In this document: piece by piece, positions 31,942 through 50,857 of the stretch
Numbering within the stretch: the stretch's first letter is position 1
Layout of the letters: each line of letters begins with the position of its first letter
DNA from: a virus
Virus record (IMG/VR): IMGVR_UViG_3300034121_001395
Reading direction: 5' to 3' (one strand)
DNA: 64,000 nt
Program-made: the position numbers and the translations under genes
The notes under the pieces: generated by a model
Told to the model about the DNA's origin: nothing
The model's database searches: none
Seen by the model: the letters and a program-made list of their open reading frames with translations, nothing else

Positions 31942-32396
31942 AAAAAGACAAAGACAGCATACTAGCGTCTCTTGAAAAAAACGTTTTACCAGTAAAACAC
32001 GAGATTGCAATTGCGGATGGCGCACCAGTTGGTCCATCGCATGACGAAATTGTGCTGCACGCTGAGGAAGATTATCGATTTGCTCGTGAACGTATTAAAA
32101 AACTTATAGACACGAGTGATGAGGCCATAAGTACAATGCATGCTCTTGCAAGTGATGCTGAACATCCACGCGCATTCGAAGTCCTTGCTGGCATGATAAA
32201 AACTGCAGCTGATATAAATGGACAGTTATTAGGACTGCAAAAAGAACGCAAAAAAATTATACAGGTTGACGATAAACGAGGACAACCTGCTGCTCAAAGT
32301 ACTACAAATAATGCTATATTTGTTGGCACCACTACAGAACTGCAAAAGTTGTTGAGAGGTGATGCTAATAGAGATGAACCTATTGATGTTGAATGA
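31938..32396 (+). CDS. gp16: Terminase small subunit gp16
   Basis: EHPRAFEVLAGMIK; TTNNAIFVGTTTELQKLL. Confidence 0.93.
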   Translation: MKKDKDSILASLEKNVLPVKHEIAIADGAPVGPSHDEIVLHAEEDYRFARERIKKLIDTSDEAISTMHALASDAEHPRAFEVLAGMIKTAADINGQLLGLQKERKKIIQVDDKRGQPAAQSTTNNAIFVGTTTELQKLLRGDANRDEPIDVE

Positions 32397-33286
32397 CTAC
32401 TCCAGATTCGTATAATGGCAATCCATATATCAAGAGAGACGGTATTCAACAACAGTTTACCGCTCATGAAATATCTGAGTATAAAAAATGTATGGCGAGT
32501 GTGTCATACTTTGCTGAACACTATGTAAAGGTTATAAATCTTGATCGTGGACTCGTAAATTTTAAGTTGCGCGGCTATCAAGAAAAGATGGTCGATCACT
32601 TTACGCACAACAGATTTAGTATTGTACTTGCGTGTCGTCAAAGCGGAAAGTCTGTGACAAGTGTTGCATGGTTGTTACATTATGCAATATTTAACCCTGA
32701 TAAGAAAATAGGTATACTAGCAAACAAAGGGGCGACTGCGCGTGAGATGTTGAGTCGTCTTACACTTATGCTTGAAAACTTACCATTTTTCTTGCAACCT
32801 GGTTGCAAAATCCTAAATAAAGGAAACATAAAATTTAGTAATAACTCTGAAGTTATTGCTGCAGCAACAAGTGGTTCAAGTATTCGTGGCTTGTCAATGA
32901 ATGTTATCTTCCTTGACGAGTTTGCGTTCGTGCATGGAGCAAACGAGTTTTATACGAGTACCTACCCAGTTATTTCTTCTGGTAAAGATACAAAGGTTAT
33001 AATAACGAGCACTCCTAATGGAGTTGGTAATATGTTTTATAAGCTTTGGGAGGGAGCAATACAGGGCACAAATGAGTTTCAATCATTTACAATTCGTTGG
33101 AATGATGTGCCAGGACGAGATGAGGAATGGAAACGTCAGACAATTGCAAACAGTAGTGAACTACAATTTACTCAGGAATTTGAATGTTTATCAGGTGATT
33201 CTGAAGTTGATGTTATTATAAATAACAAAAAAGTTAAAGTCAAACTTAAGAATTTATATGAAACATATCCTTTACAAAATAACTAG
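32393..33286 (+). CDS. gp17: Terminase large subunit gp17, N-terminal fragment (264 aa) fused to a 33-aa split-intein N-part
   Basis: Walker A CRQSGKS, Walker B IFLDEFAF, ITSTPNG; ends QEFE|CLSGDSEVDVIINNKKVKVKLKNLYETYPLQNN* (Cys1 codon 33185-33187). Confidence 0.95.
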   Translation: MTTPDSYNGNPYIKRDGIQQQFTAHEISEYKKCMASVSYFAEHYVKVINLDRGLVNFKLRGYQEKMVDHFTHNRFSIVLACRQSGKSVTSVAWLLHYAIFNPDKKIGILANKGATAREMLSRLTLMLENLPFFLQPGCKILNKGNIKFSNNSEVIAAATSGSSIRGLSMNVIFLDEFAFVHGANEFYTSTYPVISSGKDTKVIITSTPNGVGNMFYKLWEGAIQGTNEFQSFTIRWNDVPGRDEEWKRQTIANSSELQFTQEFECLSGDSEVDVIINNKKVKVKLKNLYETYPLQNN

Positions 33287-33893
33287 AAGTGATGGTCAAA
33301 AATATATTGGTATCACTATTGATTATAGACTAAAAAATAGAATGTCCCAACATAAAATAAGTGATAAATTTAAAGGTTATGATTTTGAATATGAAATATT
33401 GCTAGAATCTGATGATAGATCTGTCATTGAAATAGCAGAAGAAAAAGCAATAGATGAATATGATACATTTAATAATGGATTAAATTCTACTAAAAGCGGA
33501 AAAGGGTATGGACACAATTCATCGTCATTTACTACATTTGGTTATAAATTCGACGATGAATCTAGACAGAAAATGTCTTTAGCAGCAAAGGGACGAGCTA
33601 AGCGTGAAGGATTTGAAATTAGATCTAATAGAAGTAAAAAATTTTATAATGATAATCCAGAAGTGCGAGAAAAAATATCAAAAAATAGACGTGGAAAAAA
33701 GGCGGCATTTAAATTAAATGATAATGATATTGCTCTACTAATAGAACAATATACTACGTTTGACCATCCAGATATTGGTAAAAAATCAAAAAATGGAAGA
33801 ATACTTACCAAACAAAGAGTTTTTTCCAATGTTATTGCTCGTTTTTTTAATGTCACTCCAGTTGCAATATATGGGTATGTAAAAGATTTGTAG
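33258..33893 (+). mobile_element. Free-standing GIY-YIG homing endonuclease interrupting terL
   Basis: ILYKIT...KYIGIT...R...H and E...NGLN motifs; NUMOD3-like ESRQKMS; lies between the two terL halves and is very AT-rich. Confidence 0.88.
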
Positions 33894-33894
33894 T

Positions 33895-35013
33895 ATGCAA
33901 AACGTTTTAATTAAAAATGGTGATGGTGAATATGTTAAATTTGATGGTGTGCGAAAAACTGTACACGACAAATATATCAAATTAACACTATCTACAAATA
34001 AAATCATAAAATGTTCAGTTGATCATAGATTTGTCGTTAATGATAATATTATTTTCGCTAACAGATTAGAGATTGGAGACCATATAAACTCTAATAATAA
34101 AATTATTCATATTGAAATCGTTAACGAATCAATTGATTTATATGATCCCATTAATGTTAGCAATTCTCATACCTTTTATCATGATGACAATATCATTTCA
34201 CATAATTGTAATTTTATTGGCAGTAGTCAAACATTAATAGGTTCAGACACTCTATTGGGGCTGCAATCATATGATCCGTTGCAATTACAACATGGCATAC
34301 GCTATTATATTGAACCAATTGAAGGTCATGACTATATAATAACCGCAGATGTCAGTAAAGGACGCGGTCAAGATTACAGCACTTTTACAGTATTTGATAT
34401 ATCTGGAGTTGATGGTGTCTTTAAACAGGTGTGTACCTATAGAGATAATCTTGTGTCTCCACTTATGTTTCCAGAATTTATTGTTCGTGCCGCGAAAACA
34501 TACAATGATGCGCTTGTAATAGTTGAAAACAATGATGCTGGACAAGTTGTGTGTAATGCAATCTATTATGACTATGAATATGACAATACTTTTGTGCAAA
34601 GCTCAGTAAAAAGCAGTGGCATTGGGGTGACTATGACAAAACGTGTAAAACGTATTGGTTGTAGTAACTTAAAAGACCTGCTTGAGAGTGGTAAACTTCA
34701 ACTATGTGACGCAGACACAATAGTTGAACTCAGCAGTTTTGAACCAAAGGGAGACAGCTATGCAGCTCGTGGAAACACACATGACGATATGGTTATGAAT
34801 CTTGTACTCTTTGCTTGGTTTGTAAGTACAGATGCGTTTGGAGGACTCAGTAATATTGAACTAAAATCACTGCTCTATAGTGAAAAAATTAAAGAGATGG
34901 AAGAGGACTTGCCTCCATTTGGTATATTTGATACTCCACAAACATCACAAACTCCTAGCATGATTGACTATGAACGCCAAGTGTCATCGCTTCAAGAGTG
35001 GAATGCGCTGTAA
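33895..35013 (+). CDS. gp17: 104-aa split-intein C-part fused to terminase gp17 C-terminal (nuclease) fragment
   Basis: Block B CSVDH, block F LYDPINV, block G ISHN|C (His-Asn 34201-34206, Cys+1 34207-34209); then CNFIGS...ADVSKGRGQDYS...VENND...HDDMVM. Confidence 0.95.
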   Translation: MQNVLIKNGDGEYVKFDGVRKTVHDKYIKLTLSTNKIIKCSVDHRFVVNDNIIFANRLEIGDHINSNNKIIHIEIVNESIDLYDPINVSNSHTFYHDDNIISHNCNFIGSSQTLIGSDTLLGLQSYDPLQLQHGIRYYIEPIEGHDYIITADVSKGRGQDYSTFTVFDISGVDGVFKQVCTYRDNLVSPLMFPEFIVRAAKTYNDALVIVENNDAGQVVCNAIYYDYEYDNTFVQSSVKSSGIGVTMTKRVKRIGCSNLKDLLESGKLQLCDADTIVELSSFEPKGDSYAARGNTHDDMVMNLVLFAWFVSTDAFGGLSNIELKSLLYSEKIKEMEEDLPPFGIFDTPQTSQTPSMIDYERQVSSLQEWNAL

Positions 35014-43962: not shown

Positions 43963-45552
43963 ATGGAAAATACAATAATTGAAAACACAGAAGATGTCGT
44001 CATTGAAGACATCAACGAAGAAACATTACTTTCTCTTGACGAAACCTTAGAGCTTGATCAGGAACAAACTGAGATCGCTGAAGGCAAGTGTAAGAAAGAG
44101 GGAGAAGACATGGAAGATGAAGAAGAGTCTGATGAAGACGAAAAAGAGGATGAAGAAGAGTGTGAAGATGACGAAGAAGAAATGACTGAAGCTAAAAAGA
44201 TGACTGAAGCTATAAATGCATCACGTAAAAAACAAATTTATGCTATTGCAAAGAAATTAGGAATAACTGAAGACGAAGTCAATAAACTCATAATTAAAAG
44301 CATAAAAGTCTATGGCGCTGCTGGAAGTGACTGGGGATGGATACGTTTACATCATATTCTGGAGTTTATACGTGATGAAGCAACAGGTAATACACAAAAA
44401 AAATTAATTAGTCTTGCTAAATCAGGAGACTTTAAGAAGCTTGATAAAGAAGCTAGTGATGGTTATGATCCAGAAATAGATGATTTAGAATATCATTATG
44501 AAGCTAAAAAGATGACTGAAGCTGAAGTAAGCTCTGATGAAGAGTTTACCTCATACGCTAAGGGTATTCTTAAGGCTGCTCATGGAGACAACTATGATGA
44601 AACCAAGGCAATGGCCGCAATTGAAGGCATCCTTAAAAAGGCTGATGGAGATTATGGTTCAGCAATTGGTATGCTTACAAGTGGTCTTGGCGAAGAAATG
44701 GAAGACGAAAAAGAAGTTGAGATGAAAGAATCAGAAGAAGTTATTGAAGAAAACACAATCTCAATTGATATATCTGACATTACTCGTCTCGTTGAAAGTG
44801 AAACAGGATTGACTGAAGAGTTTAAAGAAAAAGCTACTACAATCTTTGAAGCTGCTGTTAAGAGCAAGATCAAAGAAACTGAAGAAACTCTTAAAGAAAG
44901 CTATGCAGTCGCTCTTATTGAAGAAGTAGAAACAATTAAAAACGAACTCGTTGAAAAGATTGACAACTATCTTACCTATGCAGTTGAAAGCTGGGTAGAA
45001 GATAACGAGGTTGCAATCGAAGGCGGACTTCGTACACAAATTGCTGAAAACTTTATTCAATCACTCAAGACAGTATTTGTTGAAAACTATATTGAAGTGC
45101 CTGAATCCAAGAAGGATTTGGTCGCTGAGATGGAAACTTCAATCGCTCAACTTCAAACTGAGTCTTCAGAATTGGAAAACACAGTGCTTGCCCTCAACGA
45201 AAAGGTTAATAGCCTTACTCGTGAAAAGGTAATCTCTGAGTCTACAACAGATCTTGCTGATACCCAAGTTGAAAAACTCAAGTCATTACTTGAAGATATC
45301 GAATGCACATCAGAAACATCATTTCGCAAGAAGGTAGCTACCATCAAGGAATTTTACCTTAATGGCGCTGCAGTCGAAGAAACAGAAACATTGGTTGAAG
45401 AAAATGCCAATGAATCTTCCTATATAACAACCGAAACAGTTATAGAAAATGAAACAATTGCAGAAGAAACAGTTTCGCCTGCAATGCAAAAATACTTGAC
45501 CGCATTATCACGTCTGAACAAGGCAAATGAAGCCACTGTTCCAGTACGTTGA
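43963..45552 (+). CDS. gp22: Prohead scaffold gp22, elongated by inserted domains
   Basis: Acidic; LTEEFKEKATTIFEAAV; IDNYLTYAVESW; FVENYIEVP; MQKYLTAL; lies between gp21 and gp23. Confidence 0.9.
   Translation: MENTIIENTEDVVIEDINEETLLSLDETLELDQEQTEIAEGKCKKEGEDMEDEEESDEDEKEDEEECEDDEEEMTEAKKMTEAINASRKKQIYAIAKKLGITEDEVNKLIIKSIKVYGAAGSDWGWIRLHHILEFIRDEATGNTQKKLISLAKSGDFKKLDKEASDGYDPEIDDLEYHYEAKKMTEAEVSSDEEFTSYAKGILKAAHGDNYDETKAMAAIEGILKKADGDYGSAIGMLTSGLGEEMEDEKEVEMKESEEVIEENTISIDISDITRLVESETGLTEEFKEKATTIFEAAVKSKIKETEETLKESYAVALIEEVETIKNELVEKIDNYLTYAVESWVEDNEVAIEGGLRTQIAENFIQSLKTVFVENYIEVPESKKDLVAEMETSIAQLQTESSELENTVLALNEKVNSLTREKVISESTTDLADTQVEKLKSLLEDIECTSETSFRKKVATIKEFYLNGAAVEETETLVEENANESSYITTETVIENETIAEETVSPAMQKYLTALSRLNKANEATVPVR
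44187..44523 (+). repeat. 25-bp direct repeats flanking an in-frame cassette in gp22
   Basis: tgaagctaaaaagatgactgaagct at 44187-44211 and 44499-44523, 312 nt (104 codons) apart. Confidence 0.95.
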
Positions 45553-47442: not shown

Positions 47443-47892
47443 ATGATGCAACTTGAAGATATACTTAAATTATGGGAAACTGACAGCGTTATTGATGAGA
47501 TTAATTTAGATGAAACAAGTGTCAAAAGCGCGAGTCTCCATTCTAAATATCTAGAACTTTATAGCATTGCAAAGTTAAATCTCAAAAAGAAAGAGCTCTC
47601 TATGGCTCATTTACGCAAAGATAAGTGGTTGTACTATAATGGTAAGATGACTAAAGATGAAATGGATGCCAAAGGATGGCAATATGATCCATTCTCTGGT
47701 ATGAGCAAACCACTTAAAAGTGATATGGAGTTATTTTACACTACAGACTCTGATATTATGAAACTTCAAGGACAAATAGAATATCAATCTACAATTGTTG
47801 AAGCTCTTAAAGATATTATGGACAATATAAAGTGGAGACAGTCTACAATTAAAAATATTATAGATTGGAAGCGATTTACGTCAGGCGTTTGA
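47443..47892 (+). CDS. uvsY: Recombination mediator UvsY
   Basis: WETDSVID; LHSKYL; KWLYYNGK; IKNIIDWKRF. Confidence 0.92.
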   Translation: MMQLEDILKLWETDSVIDEINLDETSVKSASLHSKYLELYSIAKLNLKKKELSMAHLRKDKWLYYNGKMTKDEMDAKGWQYDPFSGMSKPLKSDMELFYTTDSDIMKLQGQIEYQSTIVEALKDIMDNIKWRQSTIKNIIDWKRFTSGV

Positions 47893-48644
47893 TGACAAAC
47901 CTAGGCATAACTAAAGTTGACGAAACTTCATTGAGAATAGTCTCTAATGATTCTGGAATTCTTATGGAGCTTTCAGAACATTTTACTTTTTTTGCTGAAG
48001 GATATAAGTTTATGCCGCTGTATCGAAATAAGATGTGGGACGGCAAGGTGCGTCTCTATGATTCGCGTACTGGTCGCTTGCCATATGGACTGTTGTTTGA
48101 AGTGTTAAAGTTTGCAAACTCTCATGGTTATAGTTATGAATTGCATCCTAGCATAACTGAACGAGATGTACCAACATCACAGTCATTGTTAGATTATGCA
48201 AATAGTTTACATATTACAGGTGGTGAAACACGGATAACACCACGAGACTATCAACTTGAAGCATATGTACATGCTTGCACTGAAGGACGCAGTCTTGTAA
48301 TATCTCCTACAGGTTCTGGAAAAAGTTTAATTATCTACTTATGTGTTCGTTGGTTTTTAGAACATTATGACCAAAAGGTATTGATTGTAGTGCCTACAAC
48401 ATCACTCGTTCACCAAATGACAAAAGATTTTGAAGAGTATTCTAAATCTGATGATACATTTAATGTTGAAGATAGTGTATCTATGATAATGAGCGGATAT
48501 GATAAAAATCCCCAAAAAAATAAAATTAAATTGACTATGGAAGATGGATCAATACAGTCGTATTTTCCAAATGATATAGTAAATACTAGTAATAGAGGTA
48601 AAATTAAAGCTGGTGATTTAACTTTAAAAGATGACATAGTATAA
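47892..48644 (+). CDS. uvsW: UvsW helicase N-terminal fragment with 44-aa intein-like tail
   Basis: Likely start is the ATG at 47892. WDGKVRLY; PRDYQ; Walker A SPTGSGKS; motif Ia IVVPTTSLV. Helicase sequence ends near SGYDKN (48509). Confidence 0.92.
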   Translation: MTNLGITKVDETSLRIVSNDSGILMELSEHFTFFAEGYKFMPLYRNKMWDGKVRLYDSRTGRLPYGLLFEVLKFANSHGYSYELHPSITERDVPTSQSLLDYANSLHITGGETRITPRDYQLEAYVHACTEGRSLVISPTGSGKSLIIYLCVRWFLEHYDQKVLIVVPTTSLVHQMTKDFEEYSKSDDTFNVEDSVSMIMSGYDKNPQKNKIKLTMEDGSIQSYFPNDIVNTSNRGKIKAGDLTLKDDIV

Positions 48645-48673
48645 ATATACCTATAACAACCTTTGTAGGTATG
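48640..48673 (+). promoter_or_regulatory. Late promoter plus start-codon-sequestering hairpin for the HNH gene
   Basis: TATAAATA at 48640-48647; stem ATACCTATAA (48647-48656) pairs with TTGTAGGTAT (48663-48672), covering AGGT and the ATG at 48671. Confidence 0.75.
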
Positions 48674-49501
48674 AATTACTTTTTAAATGAACTTAATAAT
48701 CTTGCGATAAGCAATAAATATACAAAATGGTATAATGCCTTAATCAATCGCGCTATATCTAGGAATATATTAGATAATCCTATTGAAAACCACCATATAT
48801 TTCCAGTTTCGTTTAATCGTGATTGGAAAAATAAAAATGATAACAAAGTAGTTCTTACGATTCGGGAACATTTTATTTGTCATTTACTTTTAACAAAGAT
48901 GTTTTTTGGAGAAAATAGGTTAAAAATGGTTAGAGCGATGTTCTTTCTAAATCGCAGAAATAAATCTAAATCTTCAAGACAATATCTTGATTATAAATTG
49001 ATTTGGATAGATCATATGCAGAAAAATAATCCATTATTTGATGATAATACCAAACAGAAAATTAGTAAGGCTTTAAGTGGGAGAACTAAAGAAACTCATG
49101 ATTATATTAGAATCGCTAATATAAAAAAATCACAATATACTGCTGAGAATTCACAATGGCTACGAGATTCGCGAAATAAATTCAATGAAACTATTGCTAA
49201 GATGACAAAAGAAGAGCGGAAACAGAAATTTGGACATGAATGGTCTGATGAAGTTAGAAAAAAGTTTAGTTTAGAACGAACTGGTCAAACAAAGGAAAAT
49301 TCAGATCGTGTTCGCAAAATGTCGAAAACTAAAATAAAAAATAATTCCTTATTAAGCGCTGAAGAACGTAAAGCCAAACATTCTACTACTACAGGAATGA
49401 AATGGTATCATAATGATGAATTACGAATTTCAAAGTTAATGTTTCCTATTATAGATAATAATGAATGGGTGTTAGGCAGAAAAAAATATGAAAATATCTA
49501 A
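48671..49501 (+). mobile_element. Free-standing HNH homing endonuclease interrupting uvsW
   Basis: ENHHIFPVS...NKVVLTIREHFICHLLL (Mob-type HNH); repeated basic K.KIS.AL.G.TKE DNA-binding modules; KWYHN...W.LGR C-terminus. Confidence 0.9.
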
Positions 49502-50399
49502 AATTGATATCATTGAAACTCCATCGCCTGTTATTATTACTACATGGCAAAGCGCAATCACATTACAAAAATCATGGTTTCAAAGCTATGGTATGGTTAT
49601 AGGAGATGAAGCTCATCTCTTCAAAGCAAAAAGTTTAAATACGATTATGTCTGCATGTGTTAATGCATGTTATCGCATAGGCACTACTGGCACTCTTGAT
49701 GGCAGTCTTTGTAATGAACGAGTGCTTGTTGGTAATTTTGGTCCAACACATCGAGTAATTACAACAAAAGAGCTTATTGATAACGATACTCTTGCTGCAT
49801 TAAAAATTAAATGTATTGTATGCAACCACAGTGATGAACTTAAAAAGGTAATCTCTAAAGCAGACTATCAAACTGAGATAGATGCAATTGTGACTCATGC
49901 TGGTCGAAACTCTTTTATAGCAAACCTTGCGCTCGATCAAAAGGGCAATACACTCGTACTCTTTAATCTAGTTCAGAAACATGGCAAACCTCTTTTTGAA
50001 CTTATAAGTAGTATTAATAGTGATTCTAATAGACATATATTCTATGTGTCTGGAGAAGTAGACGCAACAAACCGAGAACACATACGTGAATTAACTGAAA
50101 CACAAAACAATGCAATTATTGTGGCGAGTGTTGGTACGTTTAGTACAGGAATCAATATCAAAAATCTGCACCAGATTATATTTGCTGCGCCAACAAAGAG
50201 TCAAATACGTGTATTGCAAAGCATTGGTCGAGGACTACGAAAATCTGATGATGGTCGACCAACAACAGTCTATGACATATCAGACAACTTCTCATGGAAA
50301 AAGAAAAAGAATTATACGCTGCAACACGCAATAGAGCGTACCAAAATGTATGCAAAGGAAGGGTTTAACTATAAACTATATGAAATACCACTGCAATGA
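49488..50399 (+). CDS. uvsW: UvsW helicase C-terminal fragment with a short intein-C-like head
   Basis: MKISKIDIIET, then PVIITTWQS, GDEAHLFKA, GTTGT, STGINIKNLH, QSIGRGLR. Confidence 0.92.
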   Translation: MKISKIDIIETPSPVIITTWQSAITLQKSWFQSYGMVIGDEAHLFKAKSLNTIMSACVNACYRIGTTGTLDGSLCNERVLVGNFGPTHRVITTKELIDNDTLAALKIKCIVCNHSDELKKVISKADYQTEIDAIVTHAGRNSFIANLALDQKGNTLVLFNLVQKHGKPLFELISSINSDSNRHIFYVSGEVDATNREHIRELTETQNNAIIVASVGTFSTGINIKNLHQIIFAAPTKSQIRVLQSIGRGLRKSDDGRPTTVYDISDNFSWKKKKNYTLQHAIERTKMYAKEGFNYKLYEIPLQ

Positions 50400-50857
50400 T
50401 TGATGGCTTATATTCAAAAGTAAAAGATCTTGACATACGGGTCTTTACATTGTCGAGTGGTAAAGTCCTTATAGGAGAAGTTGTGCATGCCTATGAAGAT
50501 GGCATACAGTTAAATTATCCACTAGAAATAAGAAAAGCACTTGTAAAGTCTGGAGTCTATACCCAAGTAATGCTACCACTTGTGGCTGGCAATGACAGCG
50601 AAAATTGTATTGTCTATGATCGTAGTATTGAAACAGAATCTGATACATCTGATGAGGTTAAACGTAAATATACAGAAGCACTTATATATCAGAGACTACT
50701 TCATTTGATATCCAATTCTTCTAAAGAAACAGATGAGAATGAATTGGATGAATCAGAAGATTTAAATTATCCCATTCCTGAAATTGATCCACCAGAAGAA
50801 TCACAGTCTGACGAAGAATTATGGAATATTTTCTTAGATCGTTGGAAGAATGTATGA
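50396..50857 (+). CDS. Hypothetical protein (Sm-like fold suspected)
   Basis: FTLSSGKVLIGEV...PLEI; occupies the usual slot between uvsW and gp55. Confidence 0.6.
   Translation: MIDGLYSKVKDLDIRVFTLSSGKVLIGEVVHAYEDGIQLNYPLEIRKALVKSGVYTQVMLPLVAGNDSENCIVYDRSIETESDTSDEVKRKYTEALIYQRLLHLISNSSKETDENELDESEDLNYPIPEIDPPEESQSDEELWNIFLDRWKNV

Follow-up and report, generated by a model that had tools for sequence, protein, structure and literature searches.

Organization of the split uvsW locus

The 64,000-nucleotide (nt) virus stretch IMG/VR virus record IMGVR_UViG_3300034121_001395 (the window, by which we mean the whole stretch) carries the helicase gene uvsW in two pieces at 47892-50399. The genome is of T4-like phage type, from freshwater and found in lake-water metagenomes, and the split gene lies downstream of a capsid gene and a gene in the uvsY position. 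An HNH-type gene separates the two halves, and each half carries extra sequence at the break, a C-terminal tail on the N-half and a short N-terminal head on the C-half, which together we call the clasp. The features are as follows, with IntN and IntC denoting the N- and C-terminal intein pieces.

47892..48644, + strand: UvsW N-half, 250 amino acids (aa) from the ATG; UvsW_N domain, Q motif, Walker A (residues 139-145), motif Ia (residue 167), then the clasp tail
48391..48506, + strand: recoded uvsW copy, residues ~167-205; left boundary about 48380-48395
48507..48641, + strand: clasp tail, 45 aa, C-terminal; equivalent to the last part of IntN
48640..48647, + strand: T4-type late promoter TATAAATA; overlaps the stop codon of the N-half
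48646..48673, + strand: RNA hairpin with an 11-bp stem that sequesters the HNH gene's ribosome site and AUG
48671..49501, + strand: HNH-type homing endonuclease gene, 276 aa, in another frame; 14-nt overlap with the C-half start
49488..49527, + strand: head, ~12 aa, N-terminal (MKI.KI); equivalent to the first strand of IntC; right cassette boundary about 49527
49488..50399, + strand: UvsW C-half, 303 aa; head, motif Ib, DEAH, motifs III-VI

An intact relative aligns end to end with T4 UvsW (E 5e-93), and the break falls in the first RecA domain, in the stretch immediately before motif Ib. The C-half is a single open frame in which TTWQS stands at residue 18 and DEAH at residue 40. Both halves share a reading frame; the non-coding spacer is 26 nt and the 3' end of the insert is doubly coding. 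The product of the middle gene matches phrog_655, an HNH-type homing endonuclease family (E 3e-30), and a search of the PDB found no relative of it. Four of 80 related loci are split (L001-L003 and L006), and the remaining loci that cover the site are intact. Intact alleles with C-half identities up to 97-99% have neither tail nor head; in L004 and L005 (C-half 99% aa identity) motif Ia continues directly into TTWQS. The split is no artefact of assembly: an independent 5270-nt contig runs across it, covering 48081-50500 without a gap, and L001-L003 are split in the same way. A 174-kb relative that is 97% complete yielded no uvsW other than the split allele, and a search for longer fused versions of the N-half, which counts as weak evidence, found none. 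An earlier note on this DNA had described uvsW as broken between motifs Ia and Ib with both halves open, and had predicted intact alleles free of both tags; open reading frames, domains and the intact alleles agree with this. Its statement that extra sequence sits exactly at the break is correct for tail and head, but the insert also replaces ~115 nt of uvsW upstream of the tail.

A mobile cassette with sharp limits

DNA identity to intact L004 is lost between ~48392 and 49528, where it recovers, so the element measures ~1.14 kb. It consists, in order, of ~115 nt of recoded uvsW, the tail, the late promoter and hairpin, the HNH gene and the head. Over the recoded stretch identity to L004 drops from ~97% to ~57%, with 0-1 change among cassette-bearing alleles. 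This stretch resembles the HomR region of T4 MobA and would probably serve to remove the nuclease target. Tail, HNH gene and head have a G+C content of 22-28% vs 36% in uvsW. The late-promoter motif occurs 18 times in the window, always on the + strand, vs 6.8 expected, and a scan for sigma-70 promoters gave nothing above chance. The hairpin folds at -12.5 kcal/mol (z -3.0) and is the only folding signal in the insert; the same arrangement of hairpin and late promoter is found in fractured genes with split inteins (PMC2677866).

The cassettes of the window and L001-L003 differ by 0-1 change in 1137 nt, with the N flank 11-13% and the C flank 1.6-2.8% different, and run X9 has 1 change within the cassette vs ~45 in the flanks. 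A near-invariant cassette in diverged flanks is therefore a homing signature. In a UvsW tree built with the tails left out, split and intact alleles interleave, with 15 changes of state, at least 8 of them forced by branches with support of at least 95; as this was a quick tree with long branches among the distant split rows and with intact rows sampled near the window only, just the near-window interleaving is meaningful. Judged by its HNH-family sequence and this mobility signature, the middle gene is a homing endonuclease gene, whose product would be an active nuclease.

L006:653-3146, a close relative (C-half 93% aa identity), has another cassette at the same site, with a different nuclease, a tail of a different subtype that has a C-terminal Trp helix, and no recoded upstream region. 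A related strain, represented by a run X9 contig, has ~907 extra bases between window positions 47865 and 47917, at the uvsY/uvsW junction, possibly another nuclease gene.

Tail and head correspond to one lobe of the Hint fold

The tail is laid out as a strand-LEDG hairpin, a block-B position without Thr or His, a helix and a DDI strand. Searched as a profile against the PDB, it has NrdJ-1 and gp41-1 inteins as its top three matches (E 0.009-0.018), and these align in register with the IntN end. The clasp and intein consensus sequences agree at nearly every position except block B, a column that differs by construction because the two classes were divided by the TxxH motif; the independent test is the block-A check given below. 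The window's own tail scores 38.9 bits on a profile made from inteins only (0 of 2000 shuffles), and a Pfam search with it gave no match.

We modelled P0142, a natural cis-fusion of tail and head, from an alignment without inteins. The result is a 62-residue domain with a predicted local confidence (pLDDT) of 84, in which the head forms the long last strand (49-58); a first fold that included the flanks reached pLDDT 69 and placed the head poorly. Among 48,161 chains, Hint domains take all of the top 28 places for the P0142 model, over 46-62 aligned residues and with a root-mean-square deviation (rmsd) of 2.4-3.3 Å. Superpositions on inteins reach Z 9.0 at best, with an rmsd of ~2.5 Å, and include PI-PfuI 77-430 (Z 8.6, rmsd 2.6, 62 aligned) and gp41-1 41-104 (Z 7.6, rmsd 2.7, 58 aligned). 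In gp41-1, NrdJ-1 and PI-PfuI the alignment takes in one lobe only and runs across the split or endonuclease site. We take the clasp segment to be one of the two pseudo-symmetric lobes of the Hint fold, with its two ends side by side and therefore suited to insertion into a loop. By the model, then, tail and head are one Hint lobe, broken at the usual IntN/IntC site. P0142 belongs to L088:491-2041, where the clasp at this first UvsW site (site 1) is re-fused in cis and the nuclease lost, and where a second, split clasp tail stands at the end.

Two claims of the earlier note, that the tags come from a Hint domain and that the break sits at the canonical split or endonuclease position of inteins, are confirmed by these profile and fold searches and by the alignments across the site. 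The link to the Hint fold rests on them, for the alignment of tail plus head to the window's TerL intein, on which the note had relied, is weak alone (hhalign probability 4%, E 0.0095). Nor is that intein in one piece. The window's terL is fractured (32393-35013): the N-part ends in a ~33-aa IntN and the C-part starts with a long IntC ending His-Asn-Cys. Judged by these residues the intein is apparently atypically split, with a short N-piece, and splicing-competent.

33258-33893: GIY-YIG-type gene within the terL intein, between the terL parts; TATAAATA at 33217

The clasp has lost every splicing element

All the catalytic elements of an intein are either in the missing lobe or altered in the clasp. 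The window has F-P-N-D at the block-B position, and the family has Glu, Asp or Gln in place of the His. A block-A-like motif lies upstream in 1 of 55 clasp-type sequences vs 52 of 67 intein-type ones. No block A was found upstream of the window's tail, nor does any frame of the cassette have His-Asn or Lys-Asn followed by Cys, Ser or Thr; the junction shows no residue conservation. The clasp cannot splice, because blocks A, F and G and the block-B His are absent, and by its residues the uvsW clasp is not a member of the split inteins, which act by protein trans-splicing. The earlier note had listed the missing elements (blocks A and F, the block-B His and the terminal His-Asn) correctly.

The tail/head pair recurs in other genes

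A homologue search returned ~24 UvsW N-halves of 230-272 aa, with identities down to 34%, that end in a related tail, and at UvsW site 1 M-K-I-x-K-I is invariant in 10 downstream partners. In all, 851 representatives match the tail profile at E<=0.001. Among the matches listed, 73 are ordinary inteins and 63 are clasp-type tails without the block-B motif, which share a single length and a single consensus and are fused directly to host sequence. Their hosts among these matches are UvsW site 1 (44), two later UvsW sites, DnaE (4) and NrdA (3), joined by a radical-SAM protein and an RNA ligase that were assigned by motif only. Where the downstream half is present in the fetched loci (DnaE, NrdA and other partners), it starts with a similar head, and the gene between the halves may be of HNH type, GIY-YIG-like or no nuclease at all. 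Other split genes with the same tail had been predicted and are thus found, with partners starting MKI.K[IV]. Three further searches added little: tblastn of the window's tail against GenBank phages gave a single weak match, an ESM Atlas feature search no usable match, and a metagenome scan with P0147 nothing.

Cultured phages carry the clasp at a third UvsW site, with an HNH gene between the halves in LIMEstone1 and no nuclease gene in Vibrio phages; the split uvsW is the only copy that they have. The Vibrio phage halves retain the clasp tags with no spacer at all, and after loss of the nuclease, halves and tags are under purifying selection (ratio of nonsynonymous to synonymous changes, dN/dS, 0.07 and 0.04).

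Several relatives show other arrangements of the lobe. At L089:3501-6219 uvsW is in three pieces with two clasps, at site 1 around a nuclease gene and at site 3 without one, and the middle piece bears both a head and a tail. At L163:2405-6458 an nrdA clasp with its nuclease gene lies apparently inside an intein (block A, then lobe, nuclease and head, then the remaining intein). Residues ~125-234 of P0135, a 293-aa lipoprotein-like protein, hold two tandem lobe-plus-strand copies in cis without splicing residues, which suggests that the lobe is able to serve as an autonomous insert in proteins other than phage enzymes. ESM Atlas rows that match the clasp model at TM scores of 0.72-0.82 include ribonucleotide reductase (RNR), NrdD, terminase and family-A polymerase clusters, some without an intein Pfam; these are possibly further clasp hosts. 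Elsewhere in the window, at 43963-45552, a very long (529 aa), acidic, scaffold-like gene lies upstream of the major capsid gene.

Relation to known split genes

The uvsW element has an IntN end, a hairpin, a free-standing nuclease and an IntC start, a layout shared with the split-intein fractured genes (Dassa et al. 2009, PMC2677866), such as gp41-1, NrdJ-1 and Salmonella phage S16 uvsW. The gp41-1 and NrdJ-1 inteins break at the same position and are the closest sequence relatives of the tail, but split inteins have blocks A, B, F and G and splice, whereas in the clasp ~57 aa of ~125-150 remain, a single lobe. Two candidates, Salmonella S16 uvsW and Klebsiella KP13-7 nrdA, were rejected as clasps, both being ordinary split inteins. 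Dickeya phage LIMEstone1 (I-LimI) also has an HNH-split uvsW with the same tail and an MKPTKI head; its site differs, lying later, in the second RecA domain, and it was published as a putative intron with the tags unnoticed (PMC3296691).

In T4, the MobA element splits the topoisomerase into gp39 and gp60, adding a recoded region together with a C-terminal (~44 aa) and an N-terminal extension; the sequences of these extensions were called unique (10.1101/2022.08.31.505936). By cryo-electron microscopy the insertion is a pendant 'assembly bracket', in a report whose main text does not mention inteins (PMC11461880, PDB 8YO3); neither paper relates the extensions to Hint domains. The uvsW cassette is likewise a ~1.1 kb HNH cassette with both extensions and a recoded homologous region; T4 differs in its longer head and ribosomal bypass cassette, and the uvsW cassette in having its recoded region on the N side. 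The gp39 tail scores a modest 24.4 bits on the clasp profile (0 of 2000 shuffles, maximum 10.3) and is the only match to it in the T4 genome (E 2e-5), and gp60 starts head-like, with MKFVKID. Against the PDB the gp39 tail reaches E 0.003, a level at which an unrelated enzyme scores alike, and 8YO3 was not among the listed rows of fold searches with the clasp model. From these sequence matches, which score a modest 20-24 bits, the T4 gp39/gp60 tags and the uvsW clasp probably belong to the same family.

Another close precedent is Aeh1 nrdA-a/mobE/nrdA-b, an HNH-split gene with a late promoter and a hairpin over the nuclease start, whose product is reassembled with mobE-derived tails as two chains without splicing; we propose the same for the uvsW clasp. 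Its authors suggested a degenerate intein as a possible origin, pointed to T4 gp39/gp60 and expected such tails to be case-specific (Crona et al., PMC3045599). Homology between the Aeh1 tails and the clasp was rejected (-1.3 bits, no match in the Aeh1 genome). The Aeh1 tails are oppositely charged, whereas the window's tail and head are near neutral and belong to a recurring family. With its free-standing nuclease gene, open halves, and extensions that come with the element and that intact alleles lack, the uvsW element would, by analogy, work like the Aeh1 and T4 genes in pieces, its two chains forming an active enzyme that depends on the tails.

A model for the two-chain helicase and its alternatives

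Collectively, our results fit a model in which a homing cassette entered uvsW at a loop in the first RecA domain, and in which the two halves would be translated separately with nothing spliced. The ancestral split intein would have lost its catalytic lobe, leaving the 45-aa tail and 12-aa head as one Hint lobe. The head strand would then complete the beta-sheet of the tail. The small pendant domain formed in this way, non-covalently, would bracket the split RecA1 domain and aid the assembly or stability of the two-chain helicase. We give this reading as a whole, a homing cassette with a half-Hint clasp that pairs separately made UvsW halves, a probability of about 0.72. The evidence from sequence, mobility and fold is strong; the function is inferred. 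The earlier note had seen in the tags a non-covalent heterodimerisation device, of which the Hint-lobe fold stands and the pairing itself is backed weakly by computation: complex prediction for the tail with the first 30 C-half residues gave 0.34 vs 0.01 for the best control. The mark used was reached by 58 of 80 solved and 2 of 110 mismatched pairs, and at <=0.60 by only 7 of the 80 together with both mismatches. Runs agreed in at least 90% of contacts with a partner pLDDT of 75, and the score may reflect memory of solved split inteins.

Several observations weigh against the model. The sequence matches to solved inteins have modest E-values, with a similar score for an unrelated Plasmodium enzyme, and the fold was modelled for the homologue P0142 rather than for the two chains of the window itself. 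RNA reads were looked for across the split junction and none was there, the only RNA contig at the locus (49945-50169) lying inside the C-half. For the tail-bearing genes L160 and L165 no partner was found nearby. Finally, the unrelated tails of Aeh1 NrdA are unneeded for the a/b heterodimer, being needed only for higher assembly and activity (PMC3045599), so the split RecA domain might also pair without the clasp.

This last point favours the alternative that survives best, although we consider it unlikely: the lobe forms as an accessory to assembly driven by the helicase core, with the tags mainly caps for folding or solubility, or with the head mainly a translation start coupled to the HNH stop. 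The T4 TOPRIM insertion was without effect on structure or activity in a fused enzyme (PMC11461880), and the C-half ATG does overlap the HNH gene. However, the head keeps its residue pattern in different hosts, beside different nucleases and where the nuclease is lost, and in the model it completes the lobe; a mere start signal would not need this.

Less probable still is that the tags are what a decaying split intein has left behind, without function, in a uvsW that is dead or whose loss is tolerated. T4 uvsW knockouts are viable, though hydroxyurea-sensitive (PMC3016281), so the 'essential gene' of the earlier note was too strong for a gene that is useful and not strictly essential in T4; moreover, the window's cassette is recent, and selection on its flanks may be inherited. 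Random decay would hardly give 63 tails of one length and consensus from which the whole catalytic lobe is cleanly gone, and clasp sites have no intein in close intact alleles. Cultured phages that have the split copy only keep both halves under purifying selection, and the three-piece gene of L089 retains all its motifs.

We see very little chance that one full-length UvsW arises because the insert splices itself out as an intron or the ribosome bypasses it. T4 gene 60 is read by translational bypassing, and the two uvsW halves share a frame. Such an outcome was also assumed for LIMEstone1, whose uvsW insert is annotated as a putative intron (PMC3296691). Against it, an Rfam search of our insert gave no intron match and no ribozyme core was found at its ends, just 26 nt are non-coding, the 3' end codes twice and the hairpin is the sole folding signal; conservation of the tags is at the protein level, and in the Vibrio phages they occur without a spacer. 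Non-canonical trans-splicing or cleavage by the pair, perhaps with a catalytic Hint lobe supplied in trans (e.g. by the TerL intein), can be all but set aside: the Hint homology is true, a split TerL intein lies in the same genome and one clasp apparently sits inside an NrdA intein (L163), but the N-terminal nucleophile, block-B Thr/His, block F and terminal Asn are all absent and the junction residues are not conserved.

Significance

The principle that split genes are reassembled by element-derived tails is already known from Aeh1 NrdA and T4 gp39/gp60, although the earlier note knew of no description of the arrangement; on a recurring half-Hint, non-splicing tag, our literature searches found no paper, with incomplete coverage of subscription papers. 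We rate as evenly balanced the broader proposal that the clasp defines a mobile-element class of its own: a half-Hint lobe, portable and non-catalytic, that any homing nuclease can carry and that would add to introns and inteins a third mode of insertion into protein-coding genes. Such a class would be used in many phage replication enzymes and explain the T4 gp39/gp60 extensions, and one Hint lobe would be an autonomous splittable domain, a ~45+12-aa pairing tag.

Tails that rescue nuclease-split genes were previously thought to be one-off and resistant to similarity searches (PMC3045599). The uvsW-type tails instead form a single family that similarity searches can detect, and its origin is defined: an intein of which the pairing lobe is left. 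The family would supply the degenerate-intein link proposed in 2010 and a testable identity for the T4 gp39/gp60 insertion, and would reinterpret genes of cultured phages annotated as introns or broken helicases, namely LIMEstone1 and about 58 Vibrio phage records. It would also bear on the half-domain origin of the Hint fold and, if binding is tight and orthogonal, would provide a very small natural pairing tag.

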